Shown here: positions 30,894-38,874 of the stretch, in pieces
Layout of the letters: every line of letters begins with the position of its first letter
How positions within the stretch are numbered: position 1 is the stretch's first letter
Assembly: GCA_046292385.1 (NCBI GenBank)
Contig: JBKBRF010000006.1
Coordinates: 96,001-160,000, forward strand
Source: Armatimonadota bacterium
GTDB taxonomy: Bacteria > Armatimonadota > SYMT01
Direction: 5' to 3'
DNA length: 64,000 nt
The notes under the pieces: model-generated
Database searches by the model: none
What the model was told of the DNA's origin: nothing
Seen by the model: the letters and a program-made list of their open reading frames with translations, nothing else
Made by a program: the position numbers and the translations under genes

Positions 30894-31976
30894 ATGCGGA
30901 TCGTAATCCTGGGGTTGTCGATCACCTCGTCGTGGGGGAACGGGCACGCCACCACCTATCGCGGGCTGGTGCGGGAGCTCGCGGCGCGCGGGCACGACCT
31001 GCTCTTCCTGGAGCGGGACGTGCCGTGGTACGCGGAGAACCGCGACCTGCCCCACCCGCCGTACGGCACTACCCGGCTCTACTCCAACCTCGACGCGCTG
31101 CGGGACGAGTGGCGGGACGCCGTTCGCGAGGCGGACCTGGTGGTGGTCGGCTCCTACGTCCCGCAGGGCGTGGAGGTGGGGGAGTGGGTCCTCGGCACCG
31201 CGCGGGGGGCGACCGCCTTTTACGACATCGACACGCCGGTGACGCTCGCCAAGCTGGAGCGCGGCGACTACGAGTACCTCACGCCGTCGCTCATCTCCCG
31301 GTATGACGCCTATCTTTCCTTCTCCGGCGGACCGATCCTGCAGCGGATCGAGCGGGAGTACGGCTCCCGGATGGCGCGGCCACTCTACTGCTCGTTCGAT
31401 CCGGAGCTCTACACGCCGGAGCCGCGGGAGCTCCGGTGGGACCTGGGGTACATGGGCACCTACAGCGACGACCGGCAGCCGCCGCTCGACCGGCTCATGC
31501 TCCAGGCCGCCGCGGCCTGGGGTGAGGGACGGTTCGTGGTGGCGGGGCCGCAGTACCCGGAGTCGATCGCCTGGCCCGCCAACGTGCAGCGGATCGAGCA
31601 CCTGCCGCCGGCGGAGCACCGCGCCTTCTACAACGAGCAGCGGTTCACGCTTAACATCACCCGCGCCGACATGATCCGCGCCGGCTACTCGCCCAGCGTG
31701 CGCCTCTTCGAAGCGGCGGCGTGCGCGGTGCCGATCATCTCCGACTACTGGGACGGGCTGGGATCGTTCTTCGAGCTGGGGCGGGAGCTGCTGGTCTCTT
31801 CCTCCCCGGAAGAGACGCTGCGCTACCTGCGAGAGATTCCGGAAGAGGAGCGCCGCGCCATCGGGGAGCGGGCGCGGGAGCGCGTGCTCTCCACGCACAC
31901 CGCCGCGCACCGGGCCGCGGAGCTGGAGGGCTACGCGCTGGAGCTGCTCGAGACCCGCGCGCCGGGGCGGGTGTAG
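30894..31976 (+). CDS. CgeB-family glycosyltransferase
   Basis: AAGGAG RBS; GLSITSSWGNGHATTYRG, LNITR, SPSVRLFEAAAC, HTAAHR. Confidence 0.88.
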   Translation: MRIVILGLSITSSWGNGHATTYRGLVRELAARGHDLLFLERDVPWYAENRDLPHPPYGTTRLYSNLDALRDEWRDAVREADLVVVGSYVPQGVEVGEWVLGTARGATAFYDIDTPVTLAKLERGDYEYLTPSLISRYDAYLSFSGGPILQRIEREYGSRMARPLYCSFDPELYTPEPRELRWDLGYMGTYSDDRQPPLDRLMLQAAAAWGEGRFVVAGPQYPESIAWPANVQRIEHLPPAEHRAFYNEQRFTLNITRADMIRAGYSPSVRLFEAAACAVPIISDYWDGLGSFFELGRELLVSSSPEETLRYLREIPEEERRAIGERARERVLSTHTAAHRAAELEGYALELLETRAPGRV

Positions 31977-32065
31977 GGCCGGAGAGCCGCGTTCGGATGG
32001 GGGAGCGTGCCTGCAGACGCCGGCCCGGGCGAGGTAGACTGCTACTGTCTCCCGGAGGGCCTTAC

Positions 32066-34636
32066 TTGTCTCAGATCGTCGCGCGCTTCCCGCTTTTCCT
32101 GATCGTTCTGCTCCTCATCACCGTCTGGTCCGCGCGACCGGGCCATGCAGTAGACCCTCCCGCCCCGCAGGGGGAGGCCAACGCGGCGGAGGTCCGGGCC
32201 GGAGCCCGGGGGCTCTTCGTGCTGGTAGGGAGCATCGGGGCGCAGTCGGCGCGCGAGAGGGCGCAGGACGCGAACGAGCGGATCGCGCAGATCCTGAGCG
32301 ACCCCGCGCTCGATCCGCAGCAGATCCAGGCGACCACGCTCCCGGACGGCAGCCCCGGCGTGGCGCTCGGCTCCATGCCGATCGTGGAGGTCACCTACGC
32401 CGACGCCCAATCCGCGGGAGAGCCGCCGGAGCGCGTGGCGGAGGAATGGGCGCAGATCCTGCGCTCCAACGTGACCCAGCTCCAGCCGCTCTTCGTGCGG
32501 GAGCGCGCGACGGTCAGCGTCAAGACCCTGAGCGAGCACCACGTCCTGCTCCTGATCCTGCAGGTGGCGATGCTGCTGGCGGTGGCGCGCATCTGCGGAG
32601 AGATCGCCCTGCGCCTGGGGCAGCCGCCCGTGATCGGGCAGCTCGCGGCGGGGATCCTGCTCGGCCACTCCGTGCTCGGCGCGCTGCTGCCGGAGCTGAA
32701 GGCGCTCGTCTTTCCGGTCGAGGCGACCCAGTCGTACCTGCTGGAAGTCGTCTCCTGGATCGGGGTGCTCTTTCTCCTGATGCTCACCGGCCTGGAGACC
32801 GACATCGCGCTGATCCGGCAGCAGGGCCGCCCGGCCCTCTACACCTCCATCACCGGCATCCTGCTCCCGTTCCTGCTCGGCGCCGGGGTAGGCTACCTGC
32901 TCCCGGACTCGCTCCTCACCACGCCTGAGTCGCGGCTGGTCCTGGCGCTCTTCCTGGGAACGGTGCTCTCGGTCTCCTCCGTGCCGGTCATCGCCAAGAT
33001 CCTGCTCGACATGCGGCTGCTCCGGCGCAACGTTGGGCAGTTGATCCTGGCCGCCGCCCTGGCGCACGATACGGTCGGCTGGATCATCCTGGCGGTCGTC
33101 GCCAGCCTCGCCGCGAGCGGGCGCGTCGAGCTGCTGGCGATCGGGAAGACGGTCCTCGGCACGGTGTTGTTCGGCCTCTTCTCCGCCACGCTCGGCCGCG
33201 TGCTGGTGCGGCGCTCGATGCGCTGGGTGAACGACCACATGCGGACCGAGTACGCGCTGCTCTCCGCGGTGGTCGTGCTCATGATGCTCAGCGCCGCCGT
33301 CACCCAGTTCATCGGGGTGCACGCCGTGCTCGGCGCCTTCGTGGTCGGCATTCTCCTCCGCGAGACGGCCGTGGTGAACGAGCGGGTGCTGCATCCGCTG
33401 GAGACGGTGACCACCGCGATCTTCGCGCCGATCTTCTTCGCCGCCGCCGGGCTGCACGTGAACCTGGGCGTGCTCCTGCAGCCGGCGCTGCTCGGGTTCG
33501 CCGTCCTCATCACCGCAGCGGCGTGCATCGGCAAGATCGTCGGCTGCTTCTTCGGTGCCTGGTGGGGAGGGGCTCCGTTCTGGAACGCGGTGAGCGTGGG
33601 GGTCGGCACCAACGCCCGCGGGGCGATGGGGCTCATCGTCGGCATCCTCGGCTTCTCGCTCGGGATCCTGACGGTCGACACCTTCTCGCTGATCATCGTG
33701 ATGGCGGTAGTGACGACGGCGATCTCGCCGCCGCTGCTGCGGTGGTCGCTGCGGAAGGTGCAGCCCGACCCGGCGGAGGAAGCGCGGCTCCAGCGGGAGG
33801 CACTGCGGGAGCGGAGCTTCCTGGGACGGATCCAGCGCGTGCTGCTCCCCACGCGCGGCGGCGACGATGCCCAGCTCGCGACGGTGCTGGTCAACTCGAT
33901 CGCGGAGCAGCAGCCGGTAGAGGTGACCAGCCTCTACGTACAGGCGAGTCCGAGCGACAACGATACCGCGGCGCATCGCTCGATCAAGGCGCGTCTGAAG
34001 GCGGAGCAGGCCTCGTTCGATTCCACTACGCTCCCTCCGGCGCCGCCCGCCGAGGCGATCGTCCAACAGGTTCGGCGGGGCTACGACCTGCTCGCGATGG
34101 GCTGCGGCCTGGACGCCGGCACCGACGGAGTGGTGTTCGGGCGGCTGGTCGACGAGGTGGCAGCCCAGGCGGCGGTCCCGCTGCTGGTAGTGCGGGCGCC
34201 GCGCGGCGAGCAGCTCCACTGGATCCGCCGCATCCTGGTGCCGACCTCCAGCGGCGCCACCGCCGTGCAGGCCGCGGAGCTGGCGGTGGCGGTGGCGCGT
34301 CACACCGGCGCGGAGGTGATCGCGCTGCACGTCTACGAGATGACCGGCGGCTCGCTCTTCTGGACCACCGACTACGAAGAGCGCGCGCGGGAGGCCGGCC
34401 AGGACGTGGTGGAGCAGGTCCGCAGTCTGGGCGACGCCAGCGAGGTGCGGGTCGACACGCTGATGGTGCAGGGGGAGCGGGCGGGGCCGGAGATCGCCCG
34501 GGTGGCGCGGGAGCGAGAGGTTGACCTGATCATCCTCGGCGGCAGCATCCGCCCCTCGCGCCGGCTCTTCCTCGGCCCCACGATCGGGACCGTGCTCCGG
34601 GAGACCGACTGCGCGGTCGCCGTGCTCAGCGCCTAG
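32066..34636 (+). CDS. Cation:proton antiporter (CPA2/KefB-like) with N-terminal exported domain and two C-terminal USP domains
   Basis: LGQPPVIGQL.AGILLG, GLETD, SVSSVPVIAKIL, LGAF..G, PIFF, NARG; RVLLPTRGG and RILVPTSSG USP starts; TTG start with GGAGG (start uncertain). Confidence 0.88.
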   Translation: MSQIVARFPLFLIVLLLITVWSARPGHAVDPPAPQGEANAAEVRAGARGLFVLVGSIGAQSARERAQDANERIAQILSDPALDPQQIQATTLPDGSPGVALGSMPIVEVTYADAQSAGEPPERVAEEWAQILRSNVTQLQPLFVRERATVSVKTLSEHHVLLLILQVAMLLAVARICGEIALRLGQPPVIGQLAAGILLGHSVLGALLPELKALVFPVEATQSYLLEVVSWIGVLFLLMLTGLETDIALIRQQGRPALYTSITGILLPFLLGAGVGYLLPDSLLTTPESRLVLALFLGTVLSVSSVPVIAKILLDMRLLRRNVGQLILAAALAHDTVGWIILAVVASLAASGRVELLAIGKTVLGTVLFGLFSATLGRVLVRRSMRWVNDHMRTEYALLSAVVVLMMLSAAVTQFIGVHAVLGAFVVGILLRETAVVNERVLHPLETVTTAIFAPIFFAAAGLHVNLGVLLQPALLGFAVLITAAACIGKIVGCFFGAWWGGAPFWNAVSVGVGTNARGAMGLIVGILGFSLGILTVDTFSLIIVMAVVTTAISPPLLRWSLRKVQPDPAEEARLQREALRERSFLGRIQRVLLPTRGGDDAQLATVLVNSIAEQQPVEVTSLYVQASPSDNDTAAHRSIKARLKAEQASFDSTTLPPAPPAEAIVQQVRRGYDLLAMGCGLDAGTDGVVFGRLVDEVAAQAAVPLLVVRAPRGEQLHWIRRILVPTSSGATAVQAAELAVAVARHTGAEVIALHVYEMTGGSLFWTTDYEERAREAGQDVVEQVRSLGDASEVRVDTLMVQGERAGPEIARVAREREVDLIILGGSIRPSRRLFLGPTIGTVLRETDCAVAVLSA

Positions 34637-34664
34637 CACGGCGACCGCGGAGCCAGGGCCGCGG

Positions 34665-36131
34665 CTACTCGGCGAGGAGGGTCTTGATCTGCGCCGTCAC
34701 GGCGTCCTCGTCGAAGCCGGACTGCAGGTACCGGAGCACGCCCTTCTTATCGATGAGGGCGATCGTCGGGAAGGCCGAAACCTCGTAGGTGGCCGAGAGC
34801 TTGCCGTCGACGTCCATCAGGGTGGGGTAGGTGACGCCGTGCTCCTTCACGAACTCGCGCGCCATCTTGTGCGGGTCCTCGCGCTCACCCGAGTTGACGC
34901 CGAAGACGGCCAGGCCCTGTCCCTTGAGCTTCTGCCACAGTTCTTTCTCTACGCGCGGAGCCTCCGCGCGACAGGCGCCTCACCAGCTGGCGAACCAGGT
35001 GAGAAAGATCACCTTACCGAGGTAGTCCTTCGCGTTCACGGAGCCGCCGTCCAGCGTCTTCAGGCTCCAGTCGGGCGCCGGCTTCCCCACGCCGACCCGC
35101 TTCGCCTCCTGCTCCGCCTGCTTCCGCGACAGCTCGGCCATAGAGAGCTCAGTCCCCGTGTAGACATACTCGACCGGCGGATCGACGCGCTGGTCCACCA
35201 CGGGAGTTCCGGCCGGGATACGGAGGGCGAACTCGCTCGAGGCGGGCTTGACGTTCACCTCGCTCTTCTGCACGGCCAGCCGGGTCTCGGCGGCGGCGTT
35301 GATGCTGCCGCGGATGTAGAGGAACTCTTCCACCAGCTTCGGGACGAGCGAGTCCCCTCCGTAGGTGAGCTGAACCTCGAAGACGCGCGTGGCGGGGCCC
35401 TGCGGCGTGGAGCCTTCTTCCTGGCGCTCGATCTTGCGGACCCGGAGCGGATTGCCCCCGACCGTGGCGGCCACCCTGGAGCTGCCCATGGTGCCGGTGA
35501 GGACGGTGCCCTCGCTGGTCTCCTCGGCGCCCGTCCAGACCGTCTCGCGGAAGTAGTCGCTGGCTCGCCCGAGCGTGAGCTGTAGGGCCGGGTCCGGGAC
35601 CGGCATGTCCCCGATCACCGCGACCCGCTCCTTGCCTTCCTCGTTGAGGAACCGGGGCAGCTTGCCGTCGGTCACCCCCGTGCCCTTGCGGCGGACCTTC
35701 CCGTCCGGCGCCAGCTGGGTCGTCTCGCGGAAGAGCCGCTCCCCGTCGTAGACGATCCGCTCCCGGCGCTGCTCCGGCTGGAGCGCCTTCAGCATCACCC
35801 GCGCCGACTCGACCGCCTCCGGAGATCCCGGCGTCCCGCCGGCAGGCGGCAGGCGGGTGGAGCGCTGCTCCACGTCGATCAGGATGCGGCCGGAGGTCAG
35901 CTTCTCCTCGGCCCGCGCCAGACGCTCGTAGATTTCTTTCGCCTTCGGATCGCTGGCCGACGCCGGCGCACCCTGTGTGGCGCCGGCGTCGGCCGCGGCC
36001 GGCGAGGTCTGCCCCGCCGGCGCTTCCGGCCTGGACGCGGTCTTACCCCCGCGGAGCAGCAGCCCCGCGACCGCCATCCCCCCGATTCCCGCCGCGACTC
36101 CGAGCGTCGCGAGCATCAACTGCCTCTTCAT
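34665..36131 (-). CDS. Exported TlpA/redoxin-domain protein, probable selenoprotein (in-frame UGA gives UxxC)
   Basis: ...APDWSLKTLDG...GKVIFLTWFASW-TGA-GACRAEAP...GLAVFGVN...YPTLMD...FPTIALIDKKG continues in the same frame; hairpin downstream of the TGA. Confidence 0.85.
34952..34982 (-). promoter_or_regulatory. UGA(Sec) codon and candidate bacterial SECIS hairpin
   Basis: Minus strand TGA GGCGCCTGT CGCGCGG-AGGCT-CCGCGCG; the G-containing apical loop begins about 16 nt after the UGA. Confidence 0.65.
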
Positions 36132-37480
36132 CGCTTCTCCTGCGCCGCATCCGGCGCGGCGGGTAGATCTTCAACCATCCGGCGGAGCACGGCGTCCGAT
36201 AGCCCGGTCTGAATCCGCCGGATCGTGCCGGCGCGGTCCACCAGCACCGCCTTGGGGGCGGCCACCGGGCCGGAGAGCCGCTCCAGCAGCCGCGCGTCGC
36301 GGTCCAGCAGCACCGGCGCGCCGACCAGCTTCCGGAGCCGCTCCAGTTCGCCGGGATCGTCGGCGCCGGCGACCGGCGAGAGCGCCACGATCCGGAGCCC
36401 CTGCTTGCGCCCCTCGCGAGAAAGCTTCTTCACCGTGCCGGCAAGCTGCTCCAGCCCCGGCGATTCGGGCAGCAGCCACACCATCAGCAGTGGGCCACCC
36501 AGGTGCGAGGAGGACTGGACGCGGCCGCCGCGGTCGTCCGGCAGCGACCACTCCACCATACGCTCGCCCTCGCCCAGCGTCATCCGCGAGACGTCGAGCG
36601 CGCGGAGCAGCTCATACGCCGCCGGCTCGGCGCCGCGGAGGTCGGTGACCGCCGTGCCCCCCGGCAGCGGCAGCGCCAGGGAGGGGGTGCCGGAAGTGAG
36701 GGGGCGGCGCTCCCGAATCTCGGTGGTCCGGTAGACCACGCTGTTGACCGGCGCCTCGCTGAGCATCCACTCTTCGATCTCGGCGGGGCTCCCTTCCGCG
36801 GCAGGACGATAGGTTAGATCATAGCGCTGCTGGAAGGGGCGTCCGTCGGCGGTGCGGAGCGAGCGGCGGATGCGCCAGCCCCGCAGCTCCGGGCGTCCGT
36901 CTCGCACCAGGCGCAGCTCGTGCTCCTCGCCTTCGCGGGTTCCGGTCAGCACCAGGTTCCGGTCGAGCTCGGTGACGCGGGTCCAGCGGAGACCTTCCAG
37001 CACGGCCGCCGTGCCCCGTCCCAGCAAGGCGTCGCCGGGGGAGGCGGAGCGGGCCGGCGCCACCAGGGCGGAGCGATCGTCCATGCCGTCTTCCGAGAAC
37101 TCCAGCAGCCGCCGCAGCTCGCCGCCGCGGCTCGCGATCCGGGAGCGCATCGGGATCGCGTTCACGCCGGCAGGGAGGATGCGCGCGTCCTTCAACCAGC
37201 CTTCCGGCGCGGCGAGCACGGTGCCCTCGGAGATGAGCGGCAGCTCGCCGGCGACTCGGGCGCGCAGCTCCGCGTCCGACTCCTTCGCCTTCAGCGCGCC
37301 GCGGCGTTCTACACTGCGGAAAGCGATCCGCTCCGGAGCCTGGGACCGCTCCGCCGCGTGCAGCTCCGAGATCCAGCGGGAAGCGGCGGCGCCGTCATCC
37401 TGCGCCCACGCGAGGCGGGGGCCTACACTCGCCAGCCCGGCCAGAACCGCGAGAGCCGCAGCCGCGCACGCGGCGCTCAC
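36128..37480 (-). CDS. Exported protein with degenerate (Cys-less) redoxin domain
   Basis: GTGA overlap with larC stop; signal peptide ending AWA; EWSLPDDRGG...LLMVWLLPESP (no CxxC)...GLRIVALS...PVLLD...PKAVLVDRAGTIRR. Confidence 0.72.
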   Translation of the reverse strand: MSAACAAAALAVLAGLASVGPRLAWAQDDGAAASRWISELHAAERSQAPERIAFRSVERRGALKAKESDAELRARVAGELPLISEGTVLAAPEGWLKDARILPAGVNAIPMRSRIASRGGELRRLLEFSEDGMDDRSALVAPARSASPGDALLGRGTAAVLEGLRWTRVTELDRNLVLTGTREGEEHELRLVRDGRPELRGWRIRRSLRTADGRPFQQRYDLTYRPAAEGSPAEIEEWMLSEAPVNSVVYRTTEIRERRPLTSGTPSLALPLPGGTAVTDLRGAEPAAYELLRALDVSRMTLGEGERMVEWSLPDDRGGRVQSSSHLGGPLLMVWLLPESPGLEQLAGTVKKLSREGRKQGLRIVALSPVAGADDPGELERLRKLVGAPVLLDRDARLLERLSGPVAAPKAVLVDRAGTIRRIQTGLSDAVLRRMVEDLPAAPDAAQEKR

Positions 37481-38874
37481 GCGGCGCCGCCGAACAGGCG
37501 CTGCCACGCCGCGGCCGCGGCCGCCGCATGCACCAGTTTCACCGCTACCCCCGCCTCTTCGGCTCGTTTCCGGCAATCTTCGTACTCCGGATGGGCGTTG
37601 CGCACCGCGCCACGCTCCTTGCCGACCTTTACGCGCACGGAGCCGAACGCGGTTTCTACCTCGACCCACTCCCGCTCCAGGCATTCCCGCTGCCACTCGC
37701 TGCGCCGTACCCCCAGCGTGGAGGTCTCCCGAAACAGCACCTGGGTAACCGATTCTACCCGGTCCGGCGGCGCGAGTACGCTGAGCAGGTGGGCGGGACG
37801 CCCCTTCTTCATCACGATCGGCGTGATCCAGGCATCGATCGCACCGGCCTGAAAGAGCGACTGCAGCGCGCCCTCGAAGAGCTGGGGAGACTGATCGTCG
37901 ATGTTCGTCTCCAGCAGCGTGACCGCCAGCGCCTCCCGGGGGGCCGACTCGGTTTCCCCCACCAGCACCCGCAGCAGGTTCGGGAACGGGAAGTCCTTGG
38001 TCCCCGCGCCGTATCCCACTTCGCGGATCGTAAACGCGGGGAGCGGCCCGAACTCGTCGGCCAGCGCCGCGGCCAGCGCCGCGCCGGTAGGAGTCACCAG
38101 CTCCGCCTGGATATCGACCGCCCGCAGCGGGCATCCTTTCAGCAGCTCCGCCGTGGCGGGCGGTGGAATCGGCATCTGCCCGTGCGCGCAGCGGACGAAG
38201 CCGTGCCCGTTCGGAAGGGGGGAGCAGACGACGCGCTCCACTCCGAGCAAGTGCAGGGCGTAAATGGCGCCGACGACGTCGACGATGCTGTCGACCGCGC
38301 CGACTTCGTGGAAGTGGACCGTCTCCAGCGTGCTGCCGTGGACCTTCGCCTCCGCCTCCGCCAGTCGCCGGTAGACCGCTTCCGCGCGCTCCTTCACCGC
38401 CGCCGGCAGGCCGCTCTCCCGGATCAGCCGCGCCACGTCGCCGAAGGTGCGGGTAACGTCCTCTCCGGCCGCCCCGCCGTGGGAATGCCCGTGGTGGCGG
38501 TGCGAGTGGGTGTGGGCGTGCGCGGCGGCGTGCTCGTGCGTGTGCTCGTGAGCGTGAGAATGCTCGTGCGTGTGAGCGTGCGCGTGCCCCACGGTGTGCG
38601 TGTGCCCGGCAGCCGGGGCCGAGAGTGGGGCGTCGGACGGCGGCACGCGCATCAGCGGCGCGTCGCCCGCCGCTTCCCCGCGCACGAGCACCTCCACGTG
38701 CGTCGCCGCGATCCCGGACTTGCTGACCCGGCTGATCTCCAGCTCCCACGGCGGCAGCGCCAGCGTCCGCAAGCCGGCGACCAGCGCCTCGGCATCGGCC
38801 CCGGCGTCGAGCAACGCGCCGAGGGTCATGTCGCCGCTGATCCCGCCCACGCAGTCAAAATAGGCAGTCGTCAT
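37477..38874 (-). CDS. larC: Nickel-pincer cofactor biosynthesis protein LarC (nickel insertase)
   Basis: YFDC..GISGDM.LGAL, His-rich tract, VHFHEVGAVDSIVD, ELVTPTGAA, LETNIDD, MKKGRP, PEYEDC. Confidence 0.95.
   Translation of the reverse strand: MTTAYFDCVGGISGDMTLGALLDAGADAEALVAGLRTLALPPWELEISRVSKSGIAATHVEVLVRGEAAGDAPLMRVPPSDAPLSAPAAGHTHTVGHAHAHTHEHSHAHEHTHEHAAAHAHTHSHRHHGHSHGGAAGEDVTRTFGDVARLIRESGLPAAVKERAEAVYRRLAEAEAKVHGSTLETVHFHEVGAVDSIVDVVGAIYALHLLGVERVVCSPLPNGHGFVRCAHGQMPIPPPATAELLKGCPLRAVDIQAELVTPTGAALAAALADEFGPLPAFTIREVGYGAGTKDFPFPNLLRVLVGETESAPREALAVTLLETNIDDQSPQLFEGALQSLFQAGAIDAWITPIVMKKGRPAHLLSVLAPPDRVESVTQVLFRETSTLGVRRSEWQRECLEREWVEVETAFGSVRVKVGKERGAVRNAHPEYEDCRKRAEEAGVAVKLVHAAAAAAAWQRLFGGAA

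Follow-up and report, generated by a model that had tools for sequence, protein, structure and literature searches.

Positions 34665 to 36131 on the minus strand of a 64,000-nucleotide (nt) stretch of DNA from an Armatimonadota bacterium (GenBank assembly GCA_046292385.1, contig JBKBRF010000006.1, positions 96,001 to 160,000; hereafter the window) hold a gene that public annotation breaks off at an in-frame TGA. This gene is almost certainly an unannotated selenoprotein of a well-known bacterial class. Read from 36131 to 34665, it very probably encodes, as a single gene, a selenoprotein of 488 residues that is exported or anchored in the membrane and serves the cell envelope as a thiol-disulfide reductase, its UGA being decoded as selenocysteine (Sec, U) with the help of a selenocysteine insertion sequence (SECIS). 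Its coding sequence and the codon in question are as follows, all positions being those of the window.

34665..36131, minus strand: complete selenoprotein coding sequence, 488 codons plus a TAG stop
34980..34982, minus strand: UGA codon for selenocysteine U384, with which the U-G-A-C redox motif begins

The list of open reading frames (ORFs) splits the locus into an ORF of 383 amino acids (34980..36131, minus strand), which ends at the TGA at 34982-34980, and one of 66 amino acids (34665..34865, minus strand). When the TGA is read as U, a single frame of 488 amino acids is obtained, ...GKVIFLTWFASW-U-GAC-RAEAPRVEKELW..., with no other interruption, and exactly 104 codons follow U384 before the TAG. 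The motif around the TGA is VIFLTWFASW-U-GAC-RAEAPRVEK, with the TGA in the first Cys position of a TlpA/ResA-type W-C-x-x-C. The Pfam models AhpC-TSA (residues 348-468) and Redoxin (residues 348-475) each give one unbroken match that crosses the TGA, and the stop therefore falls within the domain, at the first Cys of W-C-x-x-C. A preliminary description of this locus, made from the sequence alone, had placed the TGA at the first Cys of the TlpA motif in a split gene, and had stated that 104 further codons complete the thioredoxin fold. The ORF list, the frame and the span of the Pfam matches confirm the first claim, and the frame, intact as far as the TAG, confirms the second.

In public gene calling (NCBI and Logan), the product is the 383 amino acid fragment that ends at the TGA (P0002), and the protein cluster to which it belongs holds no informative names, only one 'hypothetical protein'. 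TGA is an ordinary stop elsewhere, where it ends the paralogue upstream of the gene and also the orthologues in two related genomes, G005 and G016. The in-frame TGA is therefore not explained by a reassigned genetic code.

A read-through search covered 41 genomes. Full-length orthologues with one TGA were found in G005 (42 % identity, motif SWUGPC) and G007 (34 % identity, motif SWUAAC), and more distant homologues from the same phylum, with TGA at the U384 codon, in G027 (SWUPAC), G016 (SWUPSC) and G017 (HWUGPC). The orthologue in G004 has TGC at this codon, giving the motif SWCPPC, and no stop; its contig ends inside the gene. Sec and Cys forms are thus paired at exactly the U384 codon, with TGA in the former relatives and TGC in G004. 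The TGA and the hairpin described below are kept in all six of the other Sec homologues, which come from five related genomes. G007 contains a second Sec redoxin (L241, on the plus strand of contig C265) with the motif SWUGPC, a thioredoxin domain 49 % identical to that of the target, and a SECIS as in the target, AACGCGGA-GGC-UCCGCGUU; its N-terminal ~340 amino acids look different. A search at the level of the order added only this one Sec paralogue, because the order holds just 8 genomes.

Further afield, 1.84 billion representative proteins were searched with a profile; 1178 had E values up to 1e-30, and 32 of these were fetched. Thirteen end exactly at ...SW (two of them are the G007 and G016 genes), 10 are full-length and have CxxC, and 9 are without the redox motif. 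The 13 that end at ...SW are Sec forms cut by gene callers. When residues 60-345 were used in a word-index homologue search, only the target's own 383 amino acid record was found, because the N-terminal domain is too divergent for such a search; the profile search did reach relatives.

Single-base errors occur in metagenome assemblies, and this is the sole point in favour of reading the TGA as a sequencing or assembly error for TGC or TGT. The likely source run gave one contig, at a depth of 44.8 and with no differences over the stretch, and for 34941-35064, TGA included, an identical sequence was found in a soil metagenome contig of another study. Only this identical second-study contig was counted; a contig of ~90 % identity and one from a further run, neither with a difference listed at 34980-34982, were not used (23 differences not shown). 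As the TGA is held both in the independent contig and in orthologues from five other genomes, sequencing error is excluded for practical purposes, and we regard the chance of it as negligible.

The second line of evidence is a hairpin that follows the TGA.

34952..34970, minus strand: SECIS hairpin, 8 bp CGCGCGGA/UCCGCGCG with the apical loop GGC, inside the R-A-E-A-P-R-V codons

The perfect stem of 7 bp that had been reported soon after the TGA is present, and is extended by an A-U pair to 8 bp. In the resulting structure, CGCGCGGA-GGC-UCCGCGCG, the stem starts 9 nt and the loop 17 nt past the TGA, and the isolated hairpin folds at -13.8 kcal/mol. The bacterial SECIS (bSECIS) model, as set out in the legend to Fig. 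2 of PMC13188914, has a loop of 3-9 nt with a G within its first two nucleotides, a stem of 4-16 bp, a distance of 16-37 nt from the UGA and a minimum free energy (MFE) of -7.5 or lower. With these rules applied by hand, the target hairpin (A-GGC-U loop, 8 bp, 17 nt, -13.8) agrees with every one of them, and so fits the bacterial consensus as quoted in that legend. An Rfam scan of 34400-36400 at E values up to 1 gave no match, which carries little weight as the library has few SECIS families.

The stem sits in conserved A-E-A-P codons, and only the synonymous and flanking positions are therefore informative. All synonymous versions of CRAEAPRV were enumerated, with weights taken from codon usage in four genes of the window. 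Given this peptide and the local codon usage, the probability of at least 8 bp in register is 0.0037, and that of at least 5 bp is 0.013. The A-U pair that closes the loop needs GCU (GCT), which accounts for 3.6 % of the 277 Ala codons in the window.

Across relatives, the hairpin is conserved with compensatory changes beyond chance. Six Sec genes (the target and those of G005, G007, G027, G016 and G017) were aligned and scored for the named structure, using controls in which the pairing partners were slid and 500 shuffles. All six have the hairpin in one register, xxxGCGGA-GGC-UCCGCxxx, and 95.8 % of the cells are paired, compared with 29-52 % when the partners are slid. Both sides have changed in 4 of the 8 pairs (C-G/G-C/A-U; G-C to A-U; C-G to U-A; C-G to A-U), compared with 0-1 in the slid controls, and the observed covariation score was reached by none of the 500 shuffles. 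In the Cys orthologue from G004, N-A-E-A-P-R is encoded with GAA, GCA, CCC and CGG, and the stem cannot form.

A wider sample was obtained by scanning metagenome contigs with the amino-acid-determined bases of W-U-x-x-C-x-A-E-A-P, which gave at least 120 loci. Among the 121 matches listed, 98 were redoxin-like by phmmer and 87 were distinct with 45 nt; together with the six genome sequences these make 93 Sec forms. The control consisted of 30 distinct Cys-form genes with the matching peptide motif, fetched by the SWC pattern. For the matches listed, at least 6 bp in the target register are found in 50 of the 93 Sec forms and in none of the 30 Cys forms (Fisher P ~1e-8), and GCT encodes the second Ala in 58 of the 93 and in 3 of the 30, respectively.

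The genome (7.04 Mb, 98.45 % complete) contains selA, selB, selC and selD. On contig C11, selA (577.9 bits), selD (362.3 bits) and the tRNA-Sec (66.6 bits; tRNA-SeC with anticodon tca according to ARAGORN) all score above the curated cut-offs, as does a full-length selB on contig C16 (367.5 bits, with positions 2-577 of the 581 in the model matched). The selD gene has one in-frame TGA of its own, and SelD is thus itself a selenoprotein here. We note that selA, selD and tRNA-Sec are clustered at C11:87438-90122, where a tRNA-Ala adjoins the tRNA-Sec.

In six more TlpA-like redoxin paralogues of the same genome, TGA likewise takes the first Cys position and is followed by a hairpin at the matching offset; they are located as follows.

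C17:7072-7503: Sec redoxin paralogue
C18:43626-44030: Sec redoxin paralogue
C14:77507-77902: Sec redoxin paralogue
C14:76286-76729: Sec redoxin paralogue
C4:280346-280756: Sec redoxin paralogue
C22:72627-73043: Sec redoxin paralogue

Their motifs include GUPPC, YUGAC, GUGAC and GUGFC, and their hairpin is of another sequence class, GUGAGGAGUUxCCUCAC. Three Cys redoxin paralogues are also present. With at least seven UxxC redoxin selenoproteins in its genome, the organism would be selenium-dependent, which makes it notable for selenoproteome surveys. A further redoxin/peroxiredoxin-like ORF at C4:136407-136826 (minus strand) contains a TGA in frame, with EF-U-PTT around it, and may encode a Sec peroxiredoxin.

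These paralogues also bear on whether the TGA could be a true stop, with the product a 383 amino acid LolA-like protein or the gene a recent pseudogene, and the 104 downstream codons an untranslated remnant. Public gene calls do end at the TGA, which is a normal stop in this genome. However, such a product would break off halfway through the thioredoxin fold, just behind the first strand, and homologues with identities as low as 24-42 % retain the TGA, followed by a frame that is intact, conserved and completes the fold. In addition, the SECIS co-varies, and six other redoxin genes of the genome have TGA at the matching position and a hairpin at the matching offset. We consider a true stop very improbable.

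A model of the full-length protein (predicted local distance difference test score, pLDDT, 88; predicted template modelling score, pTM, 0.77) contains the parts listed below, with residues 1-53 disordered or in a hydrophobic N-terminal helix.

36054..36131, minus strand: predicted N-terminal signal for export or anchor in the membrane (residues 1 to ~26), in which MKRQ precedes a hydrophobic stretch
35184..35948, minus strand: LolA/LolB-superfamily fold domain, ~residues 62-316, ~255 amino acids, from the model and structure search
34707..35090, minus strand: TlpA/ResA-type thioredoxin-fold domain, residues 348-475, from Pfam and structure search

The C-terminal domain scores 82.4 bits with Pfam AhpC-TSA (PF00578, cut-off 26) and 75.8 bits with Redoxin (PF08534, cut-off 26.6), and there is a weak match to GSHPx (E=0.003). 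Foldseek pairs it with ResA and other thiol-disulfide oxidoreductases at a template modelling (TM) score of ~0.9 of the target and a root-mean-square deviation (rmsd) of 1.4-1.8 Å. In the model, strand 374-380 precedes W-U-G-A-C and helix 385-405 begins directly after U384.

The N-terminal part had been described as an exported domain of ~340 amino acids. The extension is there, and it is better divided into a signal or anchor, a low-complexity linker and a domain that, as modelled, has the LolA/LolB-superfamily fold. Export or membrane anchoring is predicted on sequence grounds: the Kyte-Doolittle maximum over 19 residues is 1.91, at residues 7-25, and by hydropathy fits a signal peptide or a membrane anchor, and the N-termini of relatives are signal-peptide-like or lipobox-like. 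Modelled alone, residues 55-345 reach a pLDDT of 94.9 and a pTM of 0.90. Foldseek matches this domain to LolA chains (E=4e-7, probability 1.0), and VIA-align gives Z scores of 14.9-11.6 over 158-214 aligned residues, with sequence identities of 7-13 % in the top rows. The best of these is LolB from P. gingivalis (9tpm; Z 14.9, rmsd 4.2, 214 aligned), followed by 3bk5 and LolA3 (9tp6), both with Z 14.4; the value for Escherichia coli LolA is 13.0.

A Pfam search of the target at E values up to 1 gave no match to DUF2092 (PF09865) and left the N-terminal domain unseen. In relatives, DUF2092 is matched in two of the six members of alignment A1, and its cut-off is passed beside AhpC-TSA in four of the six distant relatives scanned (P0059, P0120, P0130 and the Sec-truncated P0031). 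The fusion of a LolA-like domain to a redoxin is found, complete or cut short, in all 32 fetched relatives, and proteins built in this way from two domains include Sec, Cys and redox-dead forms. The fusion is therefore usual within the family, and the earlier view of it as unusual does not hold.

A working mechanism can be proposed from these features. The hairpin, 9 nt past the UGA, would act as a bacterial SECIS, bound by SelB carrying Sec-tRNA(Sec) when the ribosome arrives at the UGA; this codon would be decoded as Sec, and translation would run on through the 104 codons of the thioredoxin fold. In the predicted product, a signal or anchor segment is followed by a flexible linker, the LolA/LolB-fold domain and the C-terminal TlpA/ResA-type domain with W-U-G-A-C. 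Its domains would lie outside the cytoplasm, and the enzyme would be a thiol-disulfide reductase of the cell envelope, in which the selenolate of U384 may attack a disulfide or sulfenate of the substrate and C387 may resolve the selenenylsulfide. Re-reduction would proceed via a membrane electron transporter of the DsbD/CcdA type. DsbD-type transporters are the usual reductants of TlpA-like proteins, and the genome encodes a DsbD_TM-type electron transporter (93.1 bits) at another locus. For the LolA-like domain, the probable role is to hold a hydrophobic partner or ligand, or to position the enzyme.

The main functional rival is peroxidase chemistry on lipid substrates. Here, the UxxC domain would be a selenium-based peroxidase, similar to peroxiredoxins (Prx) or glutathione peroxidases (GPx), and the LolA-like pocket would present oxidised lipids or lipoprotein acyl chains to it, so that lipid hydroperoxides of the envelope are detoxified and no protein disulfide is reduced. 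The best Pfam match is indeed to AhpC/TSA, with the weak match to GSHPx (E=0.003), and one catalogued family is named 'Prx-like thiol:disulfide oxidoreductase'. The titles of matched PDB entries also point to acyl-chain binding by LolA-fold proteins (7z6w, LolA-lipoprotein; 3mha, LprG-PIM; 8t5t, LolA-fatty acid). However, the nearest solved structures are reductases of the ResA/TlpA type (TM ~0.9), ahead of Bcp-type peroxiredoxins (TM ~0.75), the W-U-x-x-C motif is of the thioredoxin type, and scores for PrxU (23.3 against a cut-off of 270) and BCP (18.1 against 140) are below the NCBIfam cut-offs. We therefore consider a peroxidase unlikely and favour the thiol-disulfide reductase.

Several observations weigh against the reading of the gene as a SECIS-decoded envelope reductase and are collected here. 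The hairpin alone is unexceptional for this G+C-rich DNA (fold z-score 0.14 relative to dinucleotide shuffles), and the generic local MFE does not discriminate, with values of -9.2 for Sec forms, -9.46 for Cys forms and -10.25 for chance pattern matches. These two measures were replaced by the counts of register, synonymous sites and covariation reported above. As the stem lies within strongly conserved AEAP codons, part of its conservation is protein constraint, and as the relatives are kin, Fisher-type counts overstate their independence. Contrast with a close Cys orthologue depends on a single gene, that of G004, which is cut by the contig end. The broad set of 93, taken among the matches listed, is heterogeneous: 62.8 % of the cells are paired compared with 36-48 % in the slid controls, covariation scores 0.099, less than the +2 slid control (0.171), and the loop-closing pair is impossible in 35 of the 93, most of which fold a different hairpin further downstream. 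Pairing in this set thus exceeds the controls whereas covariation does not, as two or more classes of SECIS are mixed in it.

With regard to function, the protein is below all the specific NCBIfam cut-offs, namely those of ResA (NF002854, 86 against 170), DsbE/CcmG (TIGR00385, 54.3 against 123.15; NF011941, 48.8 against 359), TlpA (NF047696, 37.9 against 230) and StoA (NF041202, 53.3 against 210). It is therefore described here as a TlpA-like redoxin of no named subfamily, and its predicted function derives from fold and family. Expression of the product and its selenium content are likewise predicted from the sequence; among the sequencing runs listed as carrying the stretch, no RNA dataset was found.

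A separate clade of Sec redoxins (...KKYILNFFASWUGPCNAEAPFLEE...; metagenome loci such as L120, L129, L142, L169 and L195) has GCG for the second Ala. Genes of this clade are without the target hairpin and form another stem-loop, GCGCCGUUCCUCGAGGAGCUGCGC, ~21 nt beyond the UGA, so that the same peptide motif is combined with a second class of SECIS.

The gene lies directly downstream of a tandem paralogue.

36128..37507, minus strand: upstream tandem paralogue of ~459 amino acids, starting at GTG at 37507 or 37480; not part of the selenoprotein

The ATG of the target overlaps the TGA stop of this paralogue (ATGA). The two proteins share the same two-domain layout (BLASTP 24 % identity, 348 columns, E=1e-12), and the paralogue scores only 17.2 bits with AhpC-TSA. 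It has LLPESPGLEQ where the target has WFASWUGAC, a replacement that makes it redox-dead, and this redox-dead two-domain type is also seen in 9 of the 32 fetched relatives. The tandem arrangement was found in this genome and in G004 only; no adjacent partner is present at the G005 and G007 loci (~1.4-1.5 kb upstream) or at those of G001 and G002 (~1.5 kb downstream). As the tandem is missing from those flanks, we make no claim of a complex between the target and its paralogue.

Upstream of the paralogue pair is an ORF of 465 amino acids (37477-38874, minus strand) that starts MTTAYFDCVGGISGDM... and has a His-rich insert; we take it to resemble LarC-type nickel-insertion proteins. Downstream is a convergent transporter-like ORF on the plus strand (31721..34636). 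Just past the target stop, and overlapping the end of this ORF, an inverted repeat, GGTCGCCGTGCT...AGCACGGCGACC at 34610-34660, may serve as a bidirectional terminator. In the part of the window examined (33.5-38.9 kb), no genes for cytochrome c maturation or copper chaperones adjoin the target.

The public record is a 383 amino acid fragment and 13 of the 32 fetched relatives end likewise, so that annotation appears to fall short systematically for Sec envelope redoxins in this lineage, which is poorly sampled (8 genomes in its order). The SECIS embedded in conserved AEAP codons, with relaxed synonymous sites in the Cys orthologue, provides a clean natural example of dual coding and of constraint by RNA structure. 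The uncharacterised LolA-like fusion and the redox-dead tandem paralogue could also point to an envelope redox function directed at lipids or lipoproteins. A more specific version of this idea, which we offer as quite speculative and probably incorrect, is that LolA-like/TlpA proteins form an undescribed envelope redox module, in which the pocket would capture lipoprotein acyl chains or oxidised lipids, the Sec redoxin would repair lipid hydroperoxides or oxidised Cys or Met in lipoproteins, and the coupled redox-dead paralogue would be a non-catalytic partner or substrate adaptor. If true, this would be a bacterial extracytoplasmic counterpart of the GPx4-type lipid-directed selenoenzymes. 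The LolA-like fusion and the redox-dead paralogues were not found described among the papers listed in searches of open-access text, though catalogue supplements may list such proteins, and none of the open-access papers that name DUF2092 is, by its title or abstract, about redoxins.

Compared with ResA, TlpA and CcmG (DsbE) (PDB 1su9, 2h1b, 4nmu and 2b1k), the target has the same fold, W-[C/U]-x-x-C at the start of helix 1, an anchored or exported N-terminus (predicted for the target) and a DsbD/CcdA-type reductant in the genome. It differs in having Sec in place of the attacking Cys, in the extra LolA-like domain and in reaching none of the NCBIfam cut-offs. The family NF041054, 'ResA-like WAxxUGC motif-containing protein' (WAxxUGC_long), likewise comprises long ResA-like selenoproteins with an N-terminal extension. 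However, the target scores 43.4 bits against a cut-off of 300 and its motif is U-G-A-C (UxxC) rather than U-G-C, and membership was rejected. With the LolA/LolB superfamily, the N-terminal domain shares the fold of an open beta-barrel plugged by a helix, but it is only 7-13 % identical and is fused to a redox domain, and so probably does not act as a lipoprotein carrier in the Lol pathway.

The closest parallel is with UxxC thioredoxin-fold selenoproteins of the Prx-like/TlpA-like type, which have been catalogued since the mid-2000s (Table 1 of PMC1794560; Table 1 of PMC13188914). Names in these catalogues include 'Prx-like thiol:disulfide oxidoreductase' (PF00578) and 'Redoxin family protein' (PF08534). 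According to the catalogue descriptions, these proteins and the target have in common the AhpC-TSA/Redoxin domain, Sec as the first residue of UxxC, a SECIS within the ORF after the UGA, and Cys homologues; the target differs in the signal or anchor and the ~255 amino acid LolA/LolB-fold domain that precede its redoxin. The finding is sound, but the UxxC class was already catalogued, which makes it less novel than it was first taken to be.

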